Below are positions 8,653 to 63,051 of a stretch of DNA of 64,000 nucleotides, in pieces; the first letter of the stretch is position 1; the number at the start of each line of letters is the position of its first letter. A program made the position numbers and the translations under genes. The stretch covers positions 1,536,001-1,600,000 of the forward strand of contig OZ244048.1 of the NCBI GenBank assembly GCA_965215265.1. Reading direction: 5' to 3'. The stretch comes from Candidatus Poribacteria bacterium. GTDB lineage: Bacteria > Poribacteria > WGA-4E > WGA-3G. The notes beneath the pieces were generated by a model, which saw nothing but the letters and a program-made list of their open reading frames with translations, made no database searches and had not been told where the DNA came from.

Positions 8653-8978
8653 TTTTTCGTCTACAGGAGCCCAATGACGCTCTATGTTTTTTAAAAACTT
8701 GTGCCTGTGGTGGTGCCCACCCGCCCTTTTCCAGTCTCTTCTTTCAGGAGAGAGGAGTTGGGCGGGTGGGCACCAAAAATCTCGTCTGAGCCTCTTTATG
8801 CTATGCCCAAGGAATCTCCGACGAGATTTACACACGAGCTATCAATAGCATAAGCGTTGATGGTACGGAGATATACAAAAAAGCGATGTTTAGATTCAAT
8901 ACATCAGGAGGCTCTGGCGAGATTTATACAGTAATTTACAAAACATAAACCTTTATGGTACGGAGATATACAAAAAAA
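8653..8978. repeat. Cluster of dispersed units: inverted B arm with nested palindrome, then two A arms
   Basis: ttttcgtctacaggagcccaa...aaatctcgtc, then two gagattt...ggtacggagatatacaaaa units; last ends at ATG 8979. Confidence 0.85.
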
Positions 8979-10550
8979 ATGAATGAAAAAAAAAGTGACA
9001 ATCTTAAACTTCTTTACGGAATTATCATCGCTATTGTTGCAGGTGCGCTTGTTGGGGGAGGGTTCCCAGGGGTAGCGGTGCATACGACGATACTCGGTGA
9101 AATTTTCTTAAACCTACTAAAAATGATAGTGATTCCATTGGTGATCTTCTCCATGATTACCGGTATCACGAATTTAGGCGACATTCGCCATATCGGTTCT
9201 ATCGGTGGTAGGACCGTGCTGTACTATATGGCAACCACGGGGCTCTCCGTGCTGGTGGGTATCCTTCTCGTCAACATTCTGCTGCCCGGCAAAGGCCTCT
9301 CGAAAGGTGAAGAGCATCCGGATTTGAATTATACGCTGAGCGGCGACATGTTGCAGAACGTCACATTAGCGGCTGAATTCAGTAGAAGTTATAACGACAA
9401 GTATGTCATCACCCTCACTGACCAGGGTGTCCGCGGTGAGTTAGGATCCATGTCGGGTACCACTGTCACCGTAAAATCATGGACACTACTGGATCCTGCT
9501 GCCAGATATGTGAGTACAGACAGTGGTGAACGTTTATTGTTCCTCGACGGGAAACCGGCCGAGATCCAACTTAACGCTAGTGGGCAAGGCGTTGACATCG
9601 GGCTTCCTATTGCTGGCAAAATACAAGACAAAAAAGAGCGGGATATGCTCAGCACCCTCAAGGAGGTGTTCCTCGGCAATCTGGAGACTGGAAAAGTGGG
9701 GATGATACCCGAAAATGTATTCAAGGCAATGGCTAATATGGATATTCTCCCCTTAATCTTTTTCTCAATACTTATCGGGGCCGCGCTTTCAGTACTCGGG
9801 GAGCCGGGGAAGCCTGTGATAGCGATGATTTCGGGGCTCAATGATGCCGTGATGCAGCTCGTTCACTGGATTATGTTTGTTGCCCCGGTCGGTATTTTCG
9901 GTCTCATTGCCGGCCGCATCGGAGAGGCAGATGGGTTTGTCGGTTTCTGGCCCGAACTCGTCGCCGTTGGAAAGTATAGTTTTACTGTACTACTAGGCCT
10001 CTCAATTCATGGAGCAATTGTCTTACCCGTAATACTCTTGCTGGTTGGTCGGAGAAATCCGTTAGATTATGTCAAGGGGATGGCAACGGCGCTCTTGAAT
10101 GCATTTTCAACCGCTTCTTCCAGTGCTACCTTGCCCCTCACGATGGAGGGAGTAGAGGAGGAGAACGGTATCTCAAATCGTACTTCGAGTTTTGTGCTGC
10201 CCTTGGGCGCCACAATTAACATGGACGGTACCGCATTATATGAAGCCATTGCAGTCATGTTCATTGCGCAGGTGTACGCGATAACGATGGAACCAGCGCA
10301 GCAGCTTATTGTTGTGCTGACTGCCACGCTTGCGGCGATTGGTGCAGCAGGAATCCCGGAGGCAGGCCTCGTCACAATGGTGATTGTGCTTCGTGCTGTC
10401 GATTTGCCGATTGAGGGAATTACCTTGATTCTCTCCGTGGATTGGTTGTTAGATCGGTTCCGGACGACTGTGAATGTTTGGGGCGATAGCATCGGGGCCG
10501 GTGTCATAGAGACATACGAACTGAAGGATTCTGTGGCAGAGAGTACTTAG
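8979..10550 (+). CDS. Dicarboxylate/amino acid:cation symporter (DAACS family)
   Basis: FSTASSSATLP and PLGATINMDGTALYE motifs; long soluble insertion after TM3. Confidence 0.92.
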   Translation: MNEKKSDNLKLLYGIIIAIVAGALVGGGFPGVAVHTTILGEIFLNLLKMIVIPLVIFSMITGITNLGDIRHIGSIGGRTVLYYMATTGLSVLVGILLVNILLPGKGLSKGEEHPDLNYTLSGDMLQNVTLAAEFSRSYNDKYVITLTDQGVRGELGSMSGTTVTVKSWTLLDPAARYVSTDSGERLLFLDGKPAEIQLNASGQGVDIGLPIAGKIQDKKERDMLSTLKEVFLGNLETGKVGMIPENVFKAMANMDILPLIFFSILIGAALSVLGEPGKPVIAMISGLNDAVMQLVHWIMFVAPVGIFGLIAGRIGEADGFVGFWPELVAVGKYSFTVLLGLSIHGAIVLPVILLLVGRRNPLDYVKGMATALLNAFSTASSSATLPLTMEGVEEENGISNRTSSFVLPLGATINMDGTALYEAIAVMFIAQVYAITMEPAQQLIVVLTATLAAIGAAGIPEAGLVTMVIVLRAVDLPIEGITLILSVDWLLDRFRTTVNVWGDSIGAGVIETYELKDSVAEST

Positions 10551-10678
10551 ATTCAAAACATAGAAAGGCTCAGGCGAGATTTATGCGAGGTTGCATATCA
10601 CATCTGTTGTGTTGTGCTGCAGTAGACGAAAGACGGTACGGAGATATACGAAAAGATGGTACCAAGATATACAAAAAA
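10547..10678 (+). repeat. B-arm unit plus duplicated A-arm ends
   Basis: ggcgagattt...gctgcagtagacgaaa then ggtacggagatatacgaaaa and ggtaccaagatatacaaaaaa. Confidence 0.75.
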
Positions 10679-12803: not shown

Positions 12804-12872
12804 GTTCTTTGTCTGTCCTGAAGGACAGACACCCATTGGGAATACCGAACTTGCCAACCCGCTGGAAGCCGC

Positions 12873-12964
12873 TTTATGCTACGCTATGCCTAAGAAATCT
12901 CCGACGAGATTTACACACGAGCCCTCAAAAGCATAGACGTTGACGGTACGGAGATATACGAAAA
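12873..12964 (+). repeat. Dispersed repeat unit, A arm
   Basis: ccgacgagatttacacacgag...ggtacggagatatacgaaaa ending 4 nt before der ATG. Confidence 0.9.
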
Positions 12965-12968
12965 CGTT

Positions 12969-26296: not shown

Positions 26297-29029
26297 ATGA
26301 ATAATAAAAGCGTGTCAGTGATGTTAGCAATATTGGCGTGTATAGTTTTAAGTTTAGGGAGTGTTGGCAATGTGTGGGCACAAAGGGTAAGCGTGGCTGC
26401 GGATGTCGGTGTGCTTTCGGCTGTGAAAGGTGATGCGGATGTGAATGGTGATGGCCGTGTGGATATAGTGGATTTGGCACTGGTAGCGGCGCGCCTGGGA
26501 ACCCGCGGTAACAGTTCGGCAGATTTGAACGGGAATAGTGTAGTGGATATAGGGGATGTGGCGTTAGTAGCAGAGGGGTTTAACGGTGCGGCGTCTGCAC
26601 CTGCGGCACCTGCGTCTGTGCCTGCAGGGATGGTGCTCATCCCCGGCGGCACCTTCCAGATGGGCAGCGATGCTGCTGATGCGCGGGATAACGAGCAGCC
26701 TGTGCGGAGGGTGCATGTGGACGCGTTCTATATGGATACGCACGAAGTGACTAACGCGGCGTATCAAACTTTTGTGCTGGCGAACCCGCAGTGGCAGAAG
26801 GGGCGTATTTCGGATGCCTTCCACAGCGGTAAGTACCTAAAACATTGGGAAGGTAATAACTATCCAGGGGGTAAAGGGGACCATCCTGTGACGTATGTGT
26901 CGTGGTATGCGGCGATGGCATATTCTGCGTGGGCAGGGAAGCGTCTTCCAACGGAGGCGGAGTGGGAGAAAGCGGCACGCGGTGGGGAGGCAGGCCGGAA
27001 GTATCCGTGGGGAGACACGATAACGGCGAACGATGCGAACTACGATAGGAATGTAGACGATACGACTTCTGTGGGGAGTTATGCTGCGAACGGGTATGGG
27101 CTGTTCGACATGGCTGGGAACGTTCACGAGTGGTGCCTTGATGAATGGGATAAGACATTTTATGCTGCGTCTCCGTCTCGTAATCCGCTGCGTGGTGTGT
27201 CTGGTAGTACGCTTGCGAATGTGGCTGAGATTGTAGCGGACTACACAGGCGTAAATGTGAACTTAAAGCGGGTTTTGCGGGGTGGTAATTGGCGTGCTGA
27301 TGCACGTTACCTGCGCGTCGCCGATAGGTTCAAAAGGGAGCCGACGTTCACGGAAAGCTTCGCCGGGTTTCGTTGTGTGAGTGCAGAGCCGCCGCCGGAG
27401 CTCCCCACACCGCCGGAACCACCCACACCGCCGGAGCCACCCGCACTGGAGCCGGAGCCACCCGCACCGCAGGCACCTGCAGGGATGGCCCTCATCCCCG
27501 CGGGCGAGTTCCAGATGGGCAGCAACGATGCCGAGGCCGATGGTGACGAGCAGCCTGTGCGGAGGGTGCATGTGGACGCGTTCTACATGGATACGCACGA
27601 AGTGACGAACGCCGAGTATAGAAGTTTTCTGCTGGCGAACCCGCAGTGGCGGAAGACGCGGATTCCGGATGCCCTCCATGATGGTAATTACCTAAGCGAT
27701 TGGGACGGTAATAAGTATCCTAAGCGTAAGGGGGACCATCCTGTGGTGAATGTGTCGTGGTATGCGGCGATGGCGTATGCGGCGTGGGCAGGTAAGCGTC
27801 TTCCAACGGAGGCGGAGTGGGAGAAAGCGGCGCGCGGCGGTTGGCTAGGGTTAAAGTATCCGTGGGGAAAGACGATATCCTCTGTGCATGCGAACTACGG
27901 TAGGAATGTAGGGGACACCCGTCCTGTGGGGAGTTATGCGGCGAACGGGTATGGGCTGTTCGACATGGCCGGCAACGTTTACGAGTGGTGCCTTGATGCG
28001 TATAATGTGGATTTTTATTCTGCGTCTCCGTCTCGTAATCCGCTGAGTGGAGTGTCTGGCAGTATGCTCGCGAATCTGGATGAGATTGTATCGGACTATA
28101 CCAATATTGAGTCTTCTCGCGTGTTGCGCGGCGGTAGCTGGTCCTTTGATTCACTCTTCCTGCGTGCCGCTAATCGCCGCGGGGATACCCCTACAGACAC
28201 CAACGGCAGCTACGGGTTCCGGTGTGCGAGGGCTGTGACTCCTTCCGTGCCGCCGGCACCGGGAGGGATGGCACTCATTCCCGCGGGTGCCTTCCAGATG
28301 GGCAGCAACGATGCCGAGGCCGCTGGTGAAGAGCAGCCTGTGCATACGGTGTATGTGGACGCGTTCTATATGGATACGCACGAAGTGACGAACGCCGAGT
28401 ATAAAAGTTTTGTGCTGGCGAATCCCGAGTGGCAGAAGACGCGGATTCCGCCTGCACTCCACAATGGTAATTATCTAAACCATTGGGACGGTAATAACTA
28501 TCCAGTGGGTAAGGGGGACCATCCTGTGACGTATGTGTCGTGGTATGGTGCGATGGCGTATGCTGCGTGGGCAGGGAAGCGTCTTCCAACGGAGGCGGAA
28601 TGGGAGAAAGCGGCACGCGGGGGGTTAGTTGGTAAGAAATACCCGTGGGGAGACACGATAACGCCGGACGATGCGAACTACGGTAATAATGTAGGCGGTA
28701 CAACGGCTGTGGGGAGTTATGCAGTGAACGGGTATGGGCTATATGATATGGCCGGCAACGTGTGGGAGTGGTGTCTTGATGCGTATAATGAGGATTTCTA
28801 TTCTGCGTCTCCGTCTAGTAATCCGCTGAGTGGTGTGTCTGACAGTATGCTCGCGAATCTGGATGAGATTATAGATAACTATACCAATGTTACCTCCTCT
28901 CGCGTGTTGCGTGGCAGGGGTTGGGCCGATAATCCGCGTACCGTGCGTGTCGCCGCTCGCTTCGGGCCTCCGCCGACGCTCACGTTCAACAACCTCGGGT
29001 TCCGGTGTGCGAGGGCTGTAACCCCTTAA
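26297..29029 (+). CDS. Secreted dockerin plus three tandem FGE-sulfatase (C-type lectin fold) domains; candidate DGR target
   Basis: GGAGG before ATG 26297; three copies of FQMGS...RLPTEAEWEKAARGG...DMAGNV.EW...GFRC separated by Pro-rich linkers. Confidence 0.9.
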   Translation: MNNKSVSVMLAILACIVLSLGSVGNVWAQRVSVAADVGVLSAVKGDADVNGDGRVDIVDLALVAARLGTRGNSSADLNGNSVVDIGDVALVAEGFNGAASAPAAPASVPAGMVLIPGGTFQMGSDAADARDNEQPVRRVHVDAFYMDTHEVTNAAYQTFVLANPQWQKGRISDAFHSGKYLKHWEGNNYPGGKGDHPVTYVSWYAAMAYSAWAGKRLPTEAEWEKAARGGEAGRKYPWGDTITANDANYDRNVDDTTSVGSYAANGYGLFDMAGNVHEWCLDEWDKTFYAASPSRNPLRGVSGSTLANVAEIVADYTGVNVNLKRVLRGGNWRADARYLRVADRFKREPTFTESFAGFRCVSAEPPPELPTPPEPPTPPEPPALEPEPPAPQAPAGMALIPAGEFQMGSNDAEADGDEQPVRRVHVDAFYMDTHEVTNAEYRSFLLANPQWRKTRIPDALHDGNYLSDWDGNKYPKRKGDHPVVNVSWYAAMAYAAWAGKRLPTEAEWEKAARGGWLGLKYPWGKTISSVHANYGRNVGDTRPVGSYAANGYGLFDMAGNVYEWCLDAYNVDFYSASPSRNPLSGVSGSMLANLDEIVSDYTNIESSRVLRGGSWSFDSLFLRAANRRGDTPTDTNGSYGFRCARAVTPSVPPAPGGMALIPAGAFQMGSNDAEAAGEEQPVHTVYVDAFYMDTHEVTNAEYKSFVLANPEWQKTRIPPALHNGNYLNHWDGNNYPVGKGDHPVTYVSWYGAMAYAAWAGKRLPTEAEWEKAARGGLVGKKYPWGDTITPDDANYGNNVGGTTAVGSYAVNGYGLYDMAGNVWEWCLDAYNEDFYSASPSSNPLSGVSDSMLANLDEIIDNYTNVTSSRVLRGRGWADNPRTVRVAARFGPPPTLTFNNLGFRCARAVTP

Positions 29030-42844: not shown

Positions 42845-42930
42845 GGTTCTGTGCCTGCAGCATGCGGATGACTCGGATAAGTCCGATAGGCGGACAGTGC
42901 CATCCGTCCCCTATATCTCCTATAAAAACA

Positions 42931-43543
42931 ATTTTTTGTATATCTCCGTACCATCAACGCTTATATCGTGGGTACTCGTGTGTAAATCTCGCCAGAGCCA
43001 TTCTAGATTATGATTCCTCAATCACCTTCAGACGCTTTTATGCTTCATCACGTTTTTTTGTATATCTCCGTACCATCAACGCTTATGTCGTGGGTACTCG
43101 TGTGTAAATCTCGCCAGAGCCATTCTAGGTTATGATTCCCCAATCACCTTCAGACGCTTTTATGCTTCATCACGTTTTTTTGTATATCTCCGTACCATCA
43201 ACGCTTATGTCGTGGGTACTCGTGTGTAAATCTCGCCAGAGCCATTCTAGGTTATGATTCCTCAATCACCTTCAGACGCTTTTATGCTTCATCACGTTTT
43301 TTTGTATATCTCCGTACCATCAACGCTTATGTCGTGGGTACTCGTGTGTAAATCTCGCCAGAGCCATTCTAGGTTATGATTCCTCAATCACCTTCAGACG
43401 CTTTTATGCTTCATCACGTTTTTTTGTATATCTCCGTACCATCAACGCTTATGTCGTGGGTACTCGTGTGTAAATCTCGCCAGAGCCATTCTAGATTATG
43501 ATTCCTCAATCACCTTCAGACGCTTTTATGCTTCATCACGTTT
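42931..43543 (-). repeat. Tandem array, 5 x 122 bp, each unit containing an A arm
   Basis: gtatatctcc recurs at 42938, 43060, 43182, 43304, 43426; units differ at only about 3 positions. Confidence 0.97.
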
Positions 43544-47949: not shown

Positions 47950-48876
47950 ATGTTTCATAAAAGGATTTCAATGAATTTGAGGCTTTTCTTGTCTGCTAAA
48001 AACGTATCAATGGTATTGGCGTGTCTACTCACCGTTTTGGGTTGCGGTGGCACGAAAAGGGCTGCCCCGACCGCCGCGCCGCCTGCTGGCATGGCGCTTA
48101 TCCCTGCTGGCGATTTCCGGATGGGTAGCGACGATACAGATTCTCGGACGAATGAGCAGCCGGTGCACCGTGTGTATGTGGATGCGTTCTATATGGACAC
48201 GCACGAGGTGACAAATTCGGACTACAAGCGTTTTCTGCTTGCAAATCCGCAGTGGCAGAAGGGACGTATTTCTCGTGCACTCCACAATGGTGAGTACCTA
48301 AAAGACTGGAATGGGAATAACTATCCTGCGAGTAAAGGAGAGCATCCGGTGAAGCATGTGAGTTGGTATGCGGCGATGGCTTATGCACGGTGGGCAGGGA
48401 AACGTCTGCCGACGGAGGCGGAGTGGGAGAAAGCGGCACGCGGCGGTAAAAAAGGGCTAAAATACCCGTGGGGTAACACGATAACGCCGAGTGATGCGAA
48501 CTATGGTTGGAATGTCGGAGATACTTGTGCTGTAGGGAGTTATACGCCTAACAGGTACGGGCTGTATGACATGGCGGGTAACGTTCACGAGTGGTGTCTT
48601 GATGCATATAATGTGGATTTCTATTCTTCGTCTGCGCGGCGTAATCCGTTAAGTGACGTGGGTACGATAGCCAATCTGGGTGCGATTATAGATGCTTTCA
48701 CAAAAGTTAAGTCGGTTCGCGTGTTGCGAGGCGGTAGCTGGTACGATAATGCCCGACCTGTTCGCGTCGCCTATCGTGGCGGGGCAACGCCGACGGATTC
48801 GTTCATCAACCTCGGTTTTCGTTGCGTGAGGTCTGTTCGACAGTCAGAAGCAGGATTTGCAAGATTGGAGGACTGA
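47950..48876 (+). CDS. FGE-sulfatase domain lipoprotein, paralog of the 26297 domains
   Basis: Lipobox-like VLGC, RLPTEAEWEKAARGG, RGGSW...LGFRC; exact start uncertain. Confidence 0.88.
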   Translation: MFHKRISMNLRLFLSAKNVSMVLACLLTVLGCGGTKRAAPTAAPPAGMALIPAGDFRMGSDDTDSRTNEQPVHRVYVDAFYMDTHEVTNSDYKRFLLANPQWQKGRISRALHNGEYLKDWNGNNYPASKGEHPVKHVSWYAAMAYARWAGKRLPTEAEWEKAARGGKKGLKYPWGNTITPSDANYGWNVGDTCAVGSYTPNRYGLYDMAGNVHEWCLDAYNVDFYSSSARRNPLSDVGTIANLGAIIDAFTKVKSVRVLRGGSWYDNARPVRVAYRGGATPTDSFINLGFRCVRSVRQSEAGFARLED

Positions 48877-49070: not shown

Positions 49071-49700
49071 GTGTGTTGGCAGGATAGGTATTCTTTAATG
49101 TCAAATACAGTTAATCTAAAAATATTTCAAAAAACGTTCGATTCTTATTTTTGGAAATGGTACGGAGTTGTGAGCATCCTTTATGTTTCTATTTTCTGCA
49201 CCTACACTGCCGTGGCATTCGGTATCCTCACAAGTGAGTCTGAGTTACCTCCGTTTCTCTACCGACTCATTGCCCCGCTTGAATATTCAGAGTGGATGGG
49301 TGGCATTCCAATTGGCGGAAAGCAAATCGGTTTTCTAACATTTGGTGCTATGTCAGTTGGGGCTGTGTCTATCGGTGCCTTTTCTGTTGGGATTGTTTCT
49401 GTTGGTGCTTTTTCAATAGGAGTTTTTGCGTTTGGTGGTAACTCTTTGGGTATCATCGCCATCGGAGGAGGGACAAGTTTTGGGTGCTTTGCCGGAGCGG
49501 CAAAGACAAGCGGGAGATTTGACATCGGTAAGGCGTTAGGTGTGTTCGCGGTTGCTCCTGAAACTTATGGTGTCTATACGTTATCTTACAATGGCGGCGG
49601 CACCTACAGTTTATCACCATCTCGTGCGGACGCGGAAGCGGTTGCATTTTTTTGCCGGTGGTTACCAAAATTCAAGAAAACTTTTCACAGTCCGGCTTAA
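49071..49700 (+). CDS. Membrane protein with Gly-rich pentapeptide-like repeats
   Basis: GAMSV-GAVSI-GAFSV-GIVSV-GAFSI; start uncertain (ATG 49098 likely); degenerate A-arm fragment at 49028-49076. Confidence 0.6.
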   Translation: MCWQDRYSLMSNTVNLKIFQKTFDSYFWKWYGVVSILYVSIFCTYTAVAFGILTSESELPPFLYRLIAPLEYSEWMGGIPIGGKQIGFLTFGAMSVGAVSIGAFSVGIVSVGAFSIGVFAFGGNSLGIIAIGGGTSFGCFAGAAKTSGRFDIGKALGVFAVAPETYGVYTLSYNGGGTYSLSPSRADAEAVAFFCRWLPKFKKTFHSPA

Positions 49701-50053
49701 CGCTCGCCAATTGTCGACGGCAACTTCTCTCGAAATCAGTCGCTTATGGTTGTTGGAAAACGTTCCGTCCATTCTGAGTTTGCCATGTCTTATCTGATGT
49801 TTTTGACATGCGCCCAGGTACTCGCCAATTTCCCAGTCGGTGAAACGGCTAAGGCTTTCTCAAGTCCGTTATTCATGACATGTTTGATGTTATCGTCGGT
49901 GAGTGGTGCGTTAAAAACGCCGACTTCATCAATGAACCCGCGGAAAGACCAGCCAGGATTTTTCCAAGAGGCAAGCCAAATCTCACCATCGGGTTTATCG
50001 TCAGCTTTCCCGACCTTTTTATCTGCAACGGGTTCGCCGTCCACGTAGAGTTT

Positions 50054-50170
50054 TTCGTATATCTCCGTACCATCAACGTCTATGTAATGATAACTCGTGT
50101 GTAAATCTCGTCGGAGCCTCACTAGGTTATGATTCCTCAATAACTTTACGTGCTAACTCTTCAATCTCGA
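50054..50170 (-). mobile_element. 117-bp intragenic insertion containing an A arm
   Basis: Separates YDGDII from KLYVDG. Confidence 0.8.
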
Positions 50171-50263
50171 AATGATATCGCCATCATAGGTGAGGGCGAC
50201 AAAACTCCACTCGTCTTGTTTCCATGTACCACCTCGGATATGCGTTGCGCCCTGATCTGCGTT

Positions 50264-50350
50264 TTTTCGTATATCTCCGTACCATCAACGCTTATGTCAT
50301 GAGTACTCGTGTGTAAATCTCGTCGGAGTTTTTCGATGCTATGAATCGTT
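50264..50350 (-). mobile_element. 87-bp intragenic A-arm insertion with AACG direct repeat
   Basis: cgtt at 50260-50263 and 50347-50350; separates SIAVN from ADQGATH. Confidence 0.85.
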
Positions 50351-50916
50351 AACAGCAATACTTCCGTAAAAATCGGCAGCTCCGATTTGTATGGTGGGGT
50401 TATGCCAATCGCGTTCAATTAGCCGTGTGTGCGGATTGGGGGGTGCAGTAGTCGGTTTGACCCAGAGGAGATACGTGAAACCGTCAAGGTAATCGTCGGT
50501 AGTTTTGCTTGCGAGGATGGCGACGTGGCCCGTGCCATCAAACTCCAACCCTTTCCCGAGTTTTCCATCTGTCCATTTCGCTTTTACTACGAGTCCATCA
50601 TTGCCGTTTCCGGAACGATCTTCGACTTTGTCGCCTTTTCCTTCGTCAAGCAGCCAGATGCCAATAATCGATTCCGGATCTATTTTGGCAAAGGCATCGT
50701 GCTGGTAAATCTGAATTGGGAATATCGCTACCAGAGTTATGAGACAAAATGCGATACATGTTATAGTTCTCATTTTAGAAGTTTCCCCTTTGCTTAGATC
50801 TGATTTTACTACATTTAAAAGATTATAGTATTTCCCGTTTATTGTCAATGAACTTACGAGATATTCATTAGCCCCATTTTTTTGCGTGAGTAATATATAG
50901 ATGCGATGCGTTGCTG

Positions 50917-51110
50917 TCAGAGAGAGCGTGTCTCGGGAATTTTGTCTCCGACTACCCAAACAACAATTCCTCCCTCTTTTGTTACGCGATAGAGATGCAC
51001 TGCGATACTTTCGAAGTCAAATGAGTATCCTTTGTAGTCACGAAACTTGTCGTAGGGAGGAGATGTCGCGGTGATATCTATAATTTGTTCATCAGAGAGG
51101 TGCCCAGTTT
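50917..51110 (-). pseudogene. N4-cytosine/N6-adenine DNA methyltransferase fragment
   Basis: IDITATSPPY...LYRVTKEGGIVVWVVGD only. Confidence 0.7.
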
Positions 51111-51175
51111 CCGTTAGTGGCAGAACTGATTGAAATCTTGGCGGCAAATATTAAGAGATAAGCCACACATGTGCC

Positions 51176-53878
51176 TCAAAACTCATATATAATTCCGAAA
51201 GAGAAAAAGATGGGGAATTGGGGTATCTCCAGAGATTCATTGGCTTCTCTCCAGTCAAGTTCTTCCATGTCACTCTCATACTCTAACGTTTCGATGCCCT
51301 CTACCAATTGATCAGCAATGCTTAACCTTATTTTATTTCTGCTGTTGTAGACATTCAAGATTTCGATAAACGTCGTTATAGGGATTCCCCACCGCGTTGT
51401 TTTGCGACTGAAACGGAGATCCAAGCGGTTATAAGCCGGGAACTCTGTTGGCAAAATTGCACCTGTAACATCAGAGATGAGTGGGTGCATCCCCACCGTT
51501 ACAGGGTCCTGAACCATAATGAGGGTATTTAAGGGAACTGCGGTGGTACCACTAGAATATTGCCACCTCGCACCGATCTCCGTTTTAGTCGTTGGGTTGT
51601 AGTTGGCAACAATGCTAACAACGTGTGTGTTATCAAAGAGAAAAGGTTTGTAGCCATCTTCCGGTGTCTCACGTCGTTCGGCGTGGGTATAGGCATAAGA
51701 TACCCATCCGAAGAATTTTTCGCTCACGCGGTGCCGCAAGAACATCTCTGCTCCGCTCACAAACCCTTTTCCTTGATTGAGGTACGGTGTTGTAATCACG
51801 GTGTCCGATTCATCAAAAAGTGCCCCAAGATCTACGGATCGCGTGGCTAATTTTTGCATGTGTTTGTAGTAGAGTGAGAATTTGAGTTCTGTCTGCGGTG
51901 AGAGTTGATGTTCTAACTCCATGATATAATGCTGGGTTAGGCTTGATTTTAGCTTCCGGTTCCCCTCGGCCTTTAGGACCTGATATGCTAAGGGGCTCTG
52001 TTCATAGCTGCCGTAGGCGAACCGGAGGGTGGAAGTCGTTGGCAATGTGACGCTAAGGCTTCCACGCGGCTGAATTGAGAGTTCATCTGTCAAATTGAGA
52101 TAATCAAACCGCACACCGATTGCCATTGACAGAAATGAGAACAGATCATAGCGTCCTTGTAGGTATCCCTCGGCACGCCGAAACGCGTAATTAAATTCGT
52201 CGTGTTTTTGGCCCCATGACGGTTCCTCATCATCATCAAAATCTACGGTTGCTAGGAAAGTGGTGCGTGCGAGACTCTTGGCTGGACTAAATGCAAGGAG
52301 AAATCCTGGCTCAAATTGAAGTGTCGGTGTTAATTGGTAAAACACGTCTTCGCGAAGCGTATACATAGGGGTGTTAACCTTGACATTGTAGATGAATTCT
52401 TCGTTCTCAGCGCTGTCGTCTTGACTTGAGGCATCCTTGAAATTGACATTGAGAAAATTGTGAGAACGTGTGAGGGAGAGATAGGACGTGAGTTTATCAG
52501 TGAAATTAGAGCGGAGATGGATGCCTTCTGCTTCAAACCCGTTTTTGAAATATGCAGAAAAATCACCGGTGTCTTCGATATCTTCTGACCTAAAATTAGA
52601 GAAGTCAAAAAAATCTGTGGCTCCCAAACCGTTGAGCGTGAGGTGATGCTTTTTCGTGAGTTGATAAGCAAATTTGAGTTGATAGTCAGACCAGTTTGGA
52701 AATGTCCAATCAACAAAACGCCCTAAAATGAGATCGAGTGTGGTGAATCGCCCTGCAATGGATGCGTACCCCTTGTTGCCAATTTTGGCTCCAACGAAAC
52801 CAGAGGGTGAAAAAATGTTCAGGTCGAGCGTGCCTGTTAGCCTCTTTTTCAACTCTTCACGCGAACGGATGTCAATAACCGATTGTGAATCCAATCCAAA
52901 TTCGGCACCGTAGCCGCCAGCATAGATGCGAATGTCTTCAATACTATTTGAGTTAATCGTTGAGATAATGCCGCCAAAATGGAACGGATAGCCGACCGGG
53001 GTTCTATCTAAATACATGAGCGTTTCCCCCGGCGCACTTCCACGGATATAGAGGATTCCGAAGATATCGTTGGGGATACCGATGCTCGGCAGCGTCGTGA
53101 GCCCTTTGAGTGCATCACGCCCTATGCCGGGAATCCGTATCAGTTCGCTACCTTGAATCTGCTTTCGGCTAATCGTCGGCCGGAGGCGTTGGCCCTCCAC
53201 CACAACTGTTTCTAGCTTTGCCACTGTCCCGAGATATACTTTCACCTGTGTAGTCTCGCCTGCTGTTACCTCTATTGTCGTAGCCATCGGTGTCTTATAC
53301 GCTGCATGTGTGATGGACAGGGTGTAGGTGTCAGGCGCGATGTCTGTAAACTGAAAGTTTCCGGAAGCATCTGTTTTTCTGGACACGTTGATTTCGACAA
53401 GGAGGCTCTCTGCCTCGGCAAGAGGCTTCCCTGTTGTTTGGTCATAGACATAACCGTCGATATCCCCGTTATTGGTGGCTTTCACAAACGTAACCGCTGT
53501 ACCGGGGTAAAATCTTCCGCGGAGCGTCTCGCCCGCACGAATCTCAATCAGAATCTCTGTGGGTGTACTATAGATGGGATGGGATATGGAGAGTGTATAT
53601 GTTCCGGTAGGAATTTCGGTAAACCGAAATGTTCCGTCTTCATCTGTTTTTTGGGACTCCTCAATCTCAACGAGGTGCACCTCAGCTTCAACTAACGGTG
53701 TAGCGGGGTCGTGCTGGAGGACTGTGCCTTCTATATCACCTGTGTGCGGAAAAACCCGCTGCCAGATGCTTTTTTTCGTTTTTGAGGTCTTGTCTTTTTT
53801 AGTATCGTCCGTTTCGGCAAAAACAGAGAACGTTACCATGAGCACTACAAACAGAACTAGATATGAACAAAATTTCAT
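51176..53878 (-). CDS. TonB-dependent receptor with two carboxypeptidase-regulatory-like domains
   Basis: Signal peptide, duplicated GDIxG.V repeats, plug (LYIRG, YAGGYGAEFG), barrel ending in F. Confidence 0.88.
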   Translation of the reverse strand: MKFCSYLVLFVVLMVTFSVFAETDDTKKDKTSKTKKSIWQRVFPHTGDIEGTVLQHDPATPLVEAEVHLVEIEESQKTDEDGTFRFTEIPTGTYTLSISHPIYSTPTEILIEIRAGETLRGRFYPGTAVTFVKATNNGDIDGYVYDQTTGKPLAEAESLLVEINVSRKTDASGNFQFTDIAPDTYTLSITHAAYKTPMATTIEVTAGETTQVKVYLGTVAKLETVVVEGQRLRPTISRKQIQGSELIRIPGIGRDALKGLTTLPSIGIPNDIFGILYIRGSAPGETLMYLDRTPVGYPFHFGGIISTINSNSIEDIRIYAGGYGAEFGLDSQSVIDIRSREELKKRLTGTLDLNIFSPSGFVGAKIGNKGYASIAGRFTTLDLILGRFVDWTFPNWSDYQLKFAYQLTKKHHLTLNGLGATDFFDFSNFRSEDIEDTGDFSAYFKNGFEAEGIHLRSNFTDKLTSYLSLTRSHNFLNVNFKDASSQDDSAENEEFIYNVKVNTPMYTLREDVFYQLTPTLQFEPGFLLAFSPAKSLARTTFLATVDFDDDEEPSWGQKHDEFNYAFRRAEGYLQGRYDLFSFLSMAIGVRFDYLNLTDELSIQPRGSLSVTLPTTSTLRFAYGSYEQSPLAYQVLKAEGNRKLKSSLTQHYIMELEHQLSPQTELKFSLYYKHMQKLATRSVDLGALFDESDTVITTPYLNQGKGFVSGAEMFLRHRVSEKFFGWVSYAYTHAERRETPEDGYKPFLFDNTHVVSIVANYNPTTKTEIGARWQYSSGTTAVPLNTLIMVQDPVTVGMHPLISDVTGAILPTEFPAYNRLDLRFSRKTTRWGIPITTFIEILNVYNSRNKIRLSIADQLVEGIETLEYESDMEELDWREANESLEIPQFPIFFSFGIIYEF

Positions 53879-53879
53879 G

Positions 53880-54112
53880 TTTTTGTATATCTCCGTACCA
53901 TCAACGTCTATGTAATGATAGCTCGTGTGTAAATCTCGTCGGAGCCGTTCGACGTTTTGACTCTAAATATCACCTTCCTCCTCCTCCGTATCTTCACCGC
54001 TTATCGCTTTTTTGTATATCTCCGTACCATCAACGTCTATGTAATGATAGCTCGTGTGTAAATCTCGTCGGAGCCGTTCGATGTTTTGACTCTAAATATC
54101 ACCTTCCTCCTC
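53880..54112 (-). repeat. Two tandem A-arm units, 129-bp period
   Basis: gtatatctcc at 53885 and 54014; proximal copy ends 1 nt before ATG 53878. Confidence 0.92.
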
Positions 54113-54265
54113 CGTTTTCAGTTTTGTTGCCTGCCGCCGCGGCTTGGATGAGGTAAATTCACTCAAGCTGGGACAGGAATATTCTCTGATTTCGATTAAT
54201 CGTGGAATACTTCCATCAATTGAATCTGTTTCGAACTTAAATTGGTTGTAATGATCGAATTGGGT

Positions 54266-54953: not shown

Positions 54954-55144
54954 TCTCCCAAGCCTTAGCGTATTGCATTTGAGCCCTTTTGCAAAAAGTA
55001 TAAGATAAGTCGCAAAAAATATCAAGAAAAATCAGTTTTTTTATACATGAAAGCGATAAGGCGTGCTTAGCGTGAACGGACTCGTGCCCATTTCGCCAGA
55101 ACTGCTTTGGCCGGATTTTTTCTTCATAGATAGAGACGCATACG

Positions 55145-55322
55145 TTTTTTTGTATATCTCCGTACCATCAACGTCTATGTAATGATAGCTCGTGTGTAAA
55201 TCTCGTCGGAGACTCCTTAGGTAATGTCTTTAAAATCATAACATCAAACGGCTCCGACGAGATTTGTAAGGGATTCAAAATAGCAGCAGCCTGGATTGGG
55301 CACCTGTAGACAAACAAAAAAA
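55145..55322. repeat. Complete inverted A/B pair
   Basis: tttttgtatatctccgtacc...aaatctcgtc...gacgagattt...gggcacctgtagacaaa. Confidence 0.9.
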
Positions 55323-62271: not shown

Positions 62272-63051
62272 ATGAAATCCATTATAGTTTGCTTAGTGCT
62301 CCTAGCCATCAGTCTAACCTTTACAGTCCAAAGTTATGCGGAGATCGACTTTGGAACCGCAAGAGGGATTTGGCTATTAGACGAGGCTCAAGGCGATGTT
62401 ATCAACGATATTTCTCAGAACGACAATCACGGTGAACTTCAGGGCGGAAAATGGGTCAAAGGACCCAATGGGCCTGCGCTAAGTTTAGACGGGGTAAACG
62501 ATCGGGTTATCATTCCGGATTCCGATAGTTTGTATCTGGAAAATGCGTGGACGATTACGGCCTGGACTTTTGTGAATAAAGCCGAGAACGGTTATGGACA
62601 TATTCTCGGCAAAAGGCCTGCGGCTGGTACAGTGGCAAATTACGCGTTCAGGACAAGTAGCAACGGGGCCGGCTGGGAAGCTTACTTTGCTAGAGACGGC
62701 TGGAAGGGTGCTTGGGGGCAAGGGAACGTGAAGAAAGATACTTGGTTGTATATGACTGCAACCTATGACGGCAAGGATAACATTAAAATCTACGAAAATG
62801 CAGAGGAAATCGGTTCTGTTGGCGGGATGGGGAAACCGGCACCTCAGAATAACACGGATGTCAATATTGGCGGTTGGACTGACAACACTTCAGAAACGCT
62901 TAACGGTATGCTCTATGAGGTGGCACTTTTCGATGTTGCCCTGGAAGTAGAGGATATAAGTGAACTGATGGAGAGTGGGCTCTCGACACTCCTGCCTGTT
63001 GAGCCTTCTGGCAAACTTGCTACTACATGGGCAAGAATCAAATCTGAGTAA
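62272..63051 (+). CDS. Secreted LamG-like jellyroll protein
   Basis: Signal peptide, GIWLLDE, TYDG, VEPSGKLATTWARIK; AGGAGG RBS. Confidence 0.88.
   Translation: MKSIIVCLVLLAISLTFTVQSYAEIDFGTARGIWLLDEAQGDVINDISQNDNHGELQGGKWVKGPNGPALSLDGVNDRVIIPDSDSLYLENAWTITAWTFVNKAENGYGHILGKRPAAGTVANYAFRTSSNGAGWEAYFARDGWKGAWGQGNVKKDTWLYMTATYDGKDNIKIYENAEEIGSVGGMGKPAPQNNTDVNIGGWTDNTSETLNGMLYEVALFDVALEVEDISELMESGLSTLLPVEPSGKLATTWARIKSE

Follow-up and report, generated by a model that had tools for sequence, protein, structure and literature searches.

Two insertions of a short, high-copy repeat interrupt a LamG gene in a Candidatus Poribacteria genome

Introduction

In a Candidatus Poribacteria genome available as a single contig of 4,833,177 nt (95% complete), a gene for a LamG-domain protein is interrupted twice, by 87 and by 117 nt, and public sequencing runs hold the same gene with neither insert. 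The gene lies in the window, the whole stretch of 64,000 nt analysed here, and coordinates are those of the window unless the genome is named. We consider it very probable that this allele is a young pseudogene produced by two independent repeat insertions, and that its interruption is a strain polymorphism and not an intron, a switch or an excisable or spliced element. In the model that we propose, a short non-autonomous mobile repeat would have hit the LamG paralog twice, independently, in the lineage of the assembly, the two copies representing distinct variants of its sequence. Insert 1 would halt translation two codons after residue 143 and thereby turn the allele into a pseudogene, which would be too young to have suffered any other decay, and sister strains about 99% identical would have kept the intact gene. 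We infer that the allele no longer yields its product, and that both inserts were copied from other members of the repeat in a transposition-like process.

Taken alone, the LamG case is an ordinary one of a gene decaying through mobile DNA. The repeat family behind it is new, restricted to one lineage and currently active, a small repeat resembling the Rickettsia palindromic elements (RPE). The finding of empty and filled alleles in independent public samples makes it a case of a small non-autonomous repeat currently mobile in an uncultivated sponge symbiont.

Anatomy of the interrupted gene

The LamG gene is read from the minus strand, in the following parts; its intact paralog in the window is listed last.

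50773..49790, minus strand: interrupted LamG gene, ATG at 50773, stop codon at 49790-49792, three segments in one frame
50347..50773, minus strand: coding segment 1, with the ATG, a signal-peptide-like N-terminus and the first half of the domain
50260..50346, minus strand: insert 1, 87 nt, sense to the gene, with TAG, TGA and TGA in frame; its boundary slides by 4 nt
50171..50259, minus strand: coding segment 2, about 30 codons, joined to both inserts on contig 50111-50290 of public run X1
50054..50170, minus strand: insert 2, 117 nt, sense to the gene, with one in-frame TAG in its 5' part; limits unambiguous
49790..50053, minus strand: coding segment 3 including the stop codon, supported by Pfam and by the ortholog alignment
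62272..63051, plus strand: intact LamG paralog, 259 aa, Laminin_G_3 profile positions 1-151, E = 3.6e-18

Joined by coordinates, the three segments give 780 nt, that is, 259 codons and a stop, which agrees with the length that an earlier note, made from the sequence alone, had given for the gene after removal of the inserts and equals the length of the paralog at 62272-63051. Segment 3 matches the Pfam family Laminin_G_3 (PF13385) over profile positions 94-151 of 151 with 29.9 bits (cut-off 27.6). Segment 1 alone has no Pfam match, and it shares 76-77% identity with residues 1-142 of the uninterrupted orthologs in the relatives G007 and G002. Reading through the whole gene meets four in-frame stops, two TAG and two TGA, three of them in insert 1 and one in insert 2.

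The read-through, with X at the stops, was aligned with the longest open frames (255-272 aa) of nine related genomes. All nine orthologs are uninterrupted: they lack exactly 29 codons at one insert site and 39 at the other, and have no further indel there. Of 39 additional homolog loci in species representatives, 35 also have an open frame of at least 240 codons and two of the other four lie at contig ends; the repeat core occurs in none of the 39. Two sense-oriented inserts of 87 and 117 bp with in-frame stops, the first flanked by AACG, had been described in the earlier note, and both the ortholog gaps and the insert-free contigs described below bear this out; that the three segments share one frame with no other lesion holds equally in the nine-ortholog alignment and in the allele of run X7.

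The genome holds more than 30 paralogs with a Laminin_G_3 (LamG/ConA-like) domain, as found by tblastn. None is close to the interrupted gene, the best identity being 39-40%, and the paralog at 62272-63051 is itself distant, with 31-37% identity to other members of the LamG family. In G001, a genome of the same genus, the best match to the interrupted gene (E = 8e-21) is not a close ortholog. In view of this redundancy and of the lack of a close ortholog in G001, the LamG paralog is dispensable.

Directly upstream of the LamG gene, at 50917-51147 on the minus strand, a 76-aa ORF with an SPPY motif resembles the N-terminus of an N6/N4 DNA methylase and is probably another gene remnant. A promoter and terminator scan of 49600-51000 found none inside the inserts, and its counts were the same as in shuffled sequence.

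The two inserts

The limits of the inserts were taken from insert-free contigs of other public runs. At insert 1 they are ambiguous, AACG (cgtt on the plus strand) standing at both ends, so that a target duplication can be at most 4 nt; at insert 2 the empty allele fixes the limits and the target duplication is 0 nt. Both inserts carry the 23-nt core CTCCGACGAGATTTACACACGAG, followed some 25 nt further on by the 3' module GGTACGGAGATATAC and an A-run, and these shared parts confirm that they belong to one repeat element, as had been supposed. Terminal inverted repeats are absent from insert 2: its 5' end, TCGAGATT..., is not the inverted counterpart of its 3' end, ...ATATACGAA.

Between core and 3' module the two inserts differ at 5-6 positions, and their 5' parts are unlike. 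Hence they represent two independent arrivals and not a local duplication. The closest genomic copy of insert 1 is 94% identical over 83 nt. For insert 2 the closest is 89% identical over 114 nt, its 3' 63 nt are 100% identical to a different copy, and its 5' start recurs in two other genomic copies; from such comparisons the copies look mosaic. It is an oddity for very recent copies that neither LamG insert has a near-identical parent in the genome.

The lengths of both inserts are divisible by 3, for which the chance is one in nine. Among stop-containing intragenic inserts with defined limits this is true of four of five (p ~0.045), which we judged too weak to build on. A TT^AA target was considered and rejected: both empty sites of the LamG gene can be read as TT/AA, and the two copies that share the 5' start of insert 2 follow CCC and CAT.

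Filled and empty alleles in public runs

At least part of the stretch is held by 18 public runs from 11 studies, and the contigs of four of them (X1, X5, X6 and X7) were compared; the comparison rests on contigs, which drop rare variants. In X7, a single contig of 4658 nt spans 49600-50053, 50171-50259 and 50347-50950 with adjoining record coordinates, so that exactly 117 and 87 nt are missing. In X6, from a different study, the 117-nt skip is found on one contig and the 87-nt skip on another. The joints are the same in both runs, 50053 to 50171 (117 nt skipped, overlap 0) and 50259 to 50347 (87 nt skipped, overlap 4), and they are the insert-free junction sequences that the earlier note had predicted.

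The filled form is present in X1, whose contigs 49600-50080, 50111-50290 and 50299-50950 cross every boundary between segment and insert with 0 mismatches, and in X5, from another study, whose contig 49600-50080 passes the junction of segment 3 and insert 2 by 27 nt, segment 2 being uncovered. These contigs bear on the reading that an assembler misplaced copies of the repeat into the LamG gene. The high copy number and the breaking of short-read contigs inside the repeat would lend themselves to such an error; against it stand the X1 contigs, although X1-X4 may derive from the sample behind the window assembly, and the X5 contig. We give an assembly artefact practically no credit.

Filled and empty alleles lie on different haplotypes. 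Two SNPs, 49818 G>A and 50514 A>G, are common to X6 and X7 and absent from X1 and X5, which show no difference from the window in their unique parts. Over the 780-nt coding sequence X7 differs from the window at seven positions, five nonsynonymous and two synonymous, none of them breaking the frame. Since the SNPs between the alleles are mostly nonsynonymous, constraint on the LamG gene is weak in any case, and the loss of function is undatable from them. Position 50514 falls in codon 87, which encodes Leu in the window and Pro in X6, X7 and nearly all of the nine aligned orthologs; this Leu may mark the onset of relaxed constraint in the broken allele.

Could the same strain carry both forms? 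In a reversible DNA switch, precise excision would restore the gene and the population would flip between LamG-off and LamG-on. Such a switch would explain why the empty alleles miss exactly 87 and 117 nt without a scar and why the three segments are otherwise intact, and, as insert 2 made no target duplication, its precise loss would restore the original sequence. Nevertheless, (i) the empty alleles belong to a different haplotype with shared SNPs, and the outgroups are all empty, which makes the empty form ancestral; (ii) no insert-free joint was seen in the X1 or X5 contigs, a weak point, given that contigs drop rare variants; and (iii) this single-contig, 95%-complete genome contains neither a Y1 transposase of the IS200/IS605/RAYT type (PF01797) nor an IS110-type DEDD transposase (DEDD_Tnp_IS110, PF01548), each search having matched 6 of 14 genomes in the control. 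Y1 transposases are the known agents of precise single-strand excision. A switch is thus very unlikely in our view. What the empty contigs show is an intact allele in its own right, carried by a strain that shares about 99% identity.

Taking into account that all outgroups are empty and that the empty alleles sit on another haplotype, the empty state is ancestral and the filled form derived and young. A very recent insertion, one of the two readings offered in the earlier note, is accordingly supported by the empty alleles on a haplotype about 1% different, by the insert-free orthologs and by the unlesioned segments.

The repeat family

In the window the 23-nt core occurs 15 times, against 0 in 100 shuffles. 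Genome-wide there are 193 copies of the core at up to three mismatches and 347 copies of the 3' module, and an nhmmer profile search gives 752 matches that merge into 468 loci; the repeat thus occupies about 350-470 sites. Outside this genome it was sought in several ways. None of 40 relatives, several of them single-contig, has a match to the 117-nt insert. In JGI metagenome contigs the core has 0 exact matches, and the one match to the 20-nt 3' module is ordinary coding sequence lacking the core. In the literature library searched, no paper among the matches listed links Poribacteria to miniature inverted-repeat or similar repeat elements.

The common unit measures about 75-90 nt, as in insert 1, and the longest forms about 205 nt; a 117-nt form with both ends as in insert 2 exists at two other sites. 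The 3' end is constant and A-rich, the 5' end variable. Three arrangements in the window show how units combine:

42927..43543, minus strand: tandem array of the repeat, 122-nt unit, five copies 98% alike
53874..54113, minus strand: two tandem copies, 129-nt unit, ending directly before the ATG (53878) of a 900-aa gene that adjoins the LamG gene
55141..55283, minus strand: long palindromic variant of the repeat, with a 16-bp hairpin of the core and an inverted copy

The loci are strongly clustered: neighbours lie less than 300 nt apart in 91 cases, whereas 18 such gaps are expected and the most in any of 1000 simulations was 34. They are also oriented with the genes: inside crude ORFs 72 copies are sense and 12 antisense, and the gene downstream of a copy lies on the same strand for 168 copies versus 95.

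Copies in other genes and before start codons

The sense frame of the repeat that reads ...LRRDLHTS...DGTEIYEK is free of stops in 99 of 150 distinct right arms, against 45 and 12 of 150 for the other two sense frames. At 21 loci at least 60 open codons stand on both sides of a copy; these copies are placed within genes, in linkers or as leaders ahead of start codons. An earlier screen for open frames, which allowed a freedom of +/-20 nt and gave 156 matches, proved too permissive and was replaced by tests of paralog continuity and Pfam profiles. The fused double uvrA gene contains an in-frame, stop-free insert of about 65-70 aa, which none of the seven aligned relatives has, the same-genus genome included. 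In Sulfotransfer_1 and in PGA_cap the Pfam profile continues across a stop-free in-frame copy, and in gcvP and at the junction of glyQ and glyS copies lie in linkers.

Some of these loci deserve a description of their own. The double UvrA is encoded in one open frame of about 1840-2080 codons (genome 1077177-1083425), and the fusion is kept in 14 of 14 relatives searched; the gene of this genome carries several in-frame copies. At genome 4244340-4247525, two copies of the repeat connect glyQ and glyS into a continuous open frame in which the beta subunit lacks an obvious start codon of its own; from this arrangement glyQ-glyS may be a repeat-mediated fusion. A TlyA-like methyltransferase gene (genome 4051100-4052113) has a perfect 34-nt direct repeat flanking about 87 nt of repeat sequence, the whole read through in frame. 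The 34-nt repeat was considered as a target duplication of the host and rejected, being a variant of the 3' module of the element and thus a sign of tandem partial units.

Many copies lie immediately before genes. For 128 of 347 copies an ORF of 100 codons or more starts within the next 60 nt; the distances peak sharply at 6 nt, where 31 copies lie. The end of the repeat often stands 4-8 nt before the next start codon, as at 53874-53973, 12851-12968, 8885-8978 and 10543-10655 in the window and at many loci of the genome. The repeat brings a GGAG about 12 nt upstream of the start, and some annotated ORFs begin at an ATG inside the repeat (TTGATGGTAC), their products reading 'MVRRYTK...'. Judged by these motifs, the repeat may act as a portable translation leader.

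Stop-bearing copies behave differently. Open frames of 120 codons or more on the same strand flank 41 stop-containing copies, and the Pfam test covered 40 of these. In 38 of the 40 pairs the flanks are clearly different genes (gyrB and gyrA, OmpH and LpxD, a kinase and a response regulator, dxs-like and TlyA-like genes) or share no domain; the remaining two are DNA methylase genes. In one, a DNA methylase/HNH gene at 4.338 Mb, there are two copies, one shifting the frame and one in frame with stops; the other, at 4.517 Mb, has one in-frame copy with a stop. Stop-bearing copies are therefore found inside dispensable genes only, the LamG gene and two DNA methylase genes. The flanking frames are in the same phase for 25 of the 41 stop-containing copies, about 14 being expected, and in most of these 25 the two flanks plainly belong to different genes. 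With the clustering of copies, their co-orientation with genes, the other double hits and the redundancy of the LamG family, a double hit on the LamG gene is unsurprising.

These counts weigh on the reading that the inserts are removed or bypassed at the level of RNA or translation, by splicing or ribosomal hopping, so that the gene would still yield a full-length LamG protein. In favour of it, neither insert disturbs the frame. The 4-nt repeat of insert 1 puts an AAC codon in frame just before the insert, two codons ahead of a TAG, and another at its end, and the AAC pair formally provides matched take-off and landing codons for a bypass; the ends of insert 2 provide none. A working mechanism of removal should let essential genes tolerate copies that carry stops or shift the frame, yet none of the 40 pairs tested has a stop-containing or frame-shifting copy in a housekeeping gene. 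Copies in essential genes are stop-free and in frame throughout, and one of the DNA methylase copies shifts the frame. As regards the RNA itself, no Rfam family reaches gathering scores in the 64-kb window and one chance match (E = 0.67) falls near other copies; the inserts fold no better than shuffled sequence (RNAfold z = +1.34 and -0.06), and RNAalifold finds no consensus structure in the 150 distinct right arms. A group I or group II intron or a self-cleaving RNA was rejected on the absence of Rfam matches in the 64 kb, on the lengths of 87 and 117 nt, and because the sole RVT_1 gene belongs to a diversity-generating retroelement (DGR). We regard removal or bypass as even less probable than a switch. 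Since stop-bearing copies are confined to dispensable genes, the pattern is that of DNA insertions filtered by selection and not of removal from RNA.

The suggestion in the earlier note that the inserts are precisely removed from DNA or RNA is therefore unsupported, in that the empty alleles belong to another haplotype and no ribozyme or intron family, stable fold or Y1 transposase was found. The consequence for annotation is that adjacent in-frame ORF pieces of such kind are to be read as a repeat-interrupted pseudogene and not as a split or intron-containing gene.

Mobility of the repeat

In addition to the absence of Y1 and IS110-type transposases, the search for Y2_Tnp (PF04986, IS91) gave 0 matches in the genome, the control being silent everywhere as well. 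Repeated blocks of at least 600 nt ending at a copy were examined in a non-exhaustive search; their genes, for a DNA methylase and for an Rpn/YhgA-like protein, each have the repeat as upstream leader, and no transposase flanked by the repeat was among them.

The only RVT_1 gene adjoins an Avd-like gene and a template repeat/variable repeat (TR/VR) pair, and this reverse transcriptase therefore belongs to a DGR. The DGR occupies genome 1418596-1422237, with an Avd-like gene of 118 aa and a reverse transcriptase of 354 aa. Its TR (locus positions 2439-2551) is 84% identical to the 3' end of the adjacent FGE-sulfatase gene, the VR, with 16 mismatches. TR-like stretches (72-81%) are present at the 3' ends of FGE-sulfatase paralogs of the window, at 28115-28229, 28898-29012 and 48717-48776, the last in a gene (47950-48876) that lies immediately upstream of the LamG gene.

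The constant A-rich 3' end, the variable 5' end, the lack of terminal inverted repeats, the duplications of 0-4 nt and the mosaic copies could together point to an undescribed type of mobile element in bacteria, one that propagates through copying anchored at the 3' end. Formally this would be like SINE-like target-primed retroposition or one-ended rolling-circle transposition, the sole recognisable reverse transcriptase here being that of the DGR. We hold such a novel kind of element to be unlikely; were it real, its copies would also be ready-made translation leaders and in-frame protein inserts.

Comparison with known systems

In programmed translational bypass, known from T4 gene 60 and from the mitochondrial byps of Magnusiomyces, the ribosome passes over gaps of about 27-55 nt. 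The LamG gene shares with these cases an in-frame, stop-containing gap inside a gene and, at insert 1, matched AAC codons at both ends. It differs in that its gaps are of 87 and 117 nt, that insert 2 has no matched codons and that there is no stable local fold.

REPs are extragenic repeats. The family described here recalls REP/REPIN elements in that its long variants are hairpins of two inverted cores and its hundreds of copies are clustered. It departs from the REPIN/RAYT system, the genome lacking Y1_Tnp and the copies being frequent in genes and co-oriented with them.

Classical MITEs (Correia/NEMIS, ERIC, RUP and BOX) are described in passages of PMC10969869 as small, high-copy elements with no transposase that are polymorphic between strains and that disrupt genes or fuse with ORFs. 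The Poribacteria repeat is likewise small, codes for no transposase, and is high-copy and strain-polymorphic. However, terminal inverted repeats are missing from the inserted copies, palindromes being limited to longer variants elsewhere, and there is no fixed target duplication (0 nt at insert 2, at most 4 nt at insert 1), with a constant 3' end and a variable 5' end. Moreover, a non-exhaustive search found no parent IS with matching ends.

The closest likeness in behaviour, as compared apart from sequence, is to the RPE, which according to passages of the same source (PMC10969869) insert in frame into unrelated genes. Like them, the repeat is about 90-200 nt long, high-copy, partly palindromic and of no known transposase. 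It has one frame that is usually stop-free (99/150) and is read through in frame in uvrA, sulfotransferase and PGA_cap, so that in-frame, stop-free copies occur in unrelated genes, the one in uvrA being absent from the orthologs. Unlike the RPE, it belongs to another phylum, and many of its copies stand directly before start codons or in tandem arrays; the two LamG copies, moreover, carry stops and so destroy the protein instead of decorating it. One element breaks dispensable genes (a LamG paralog and methylases of restriction-modification), adds stop-free peptides to others (uvrA, sulfotransferase, PGA_cap) and fills the spacers before start codons. The family thus extends RPE-like behaviour to an unrelated phylum, with better evidence of recent activity.
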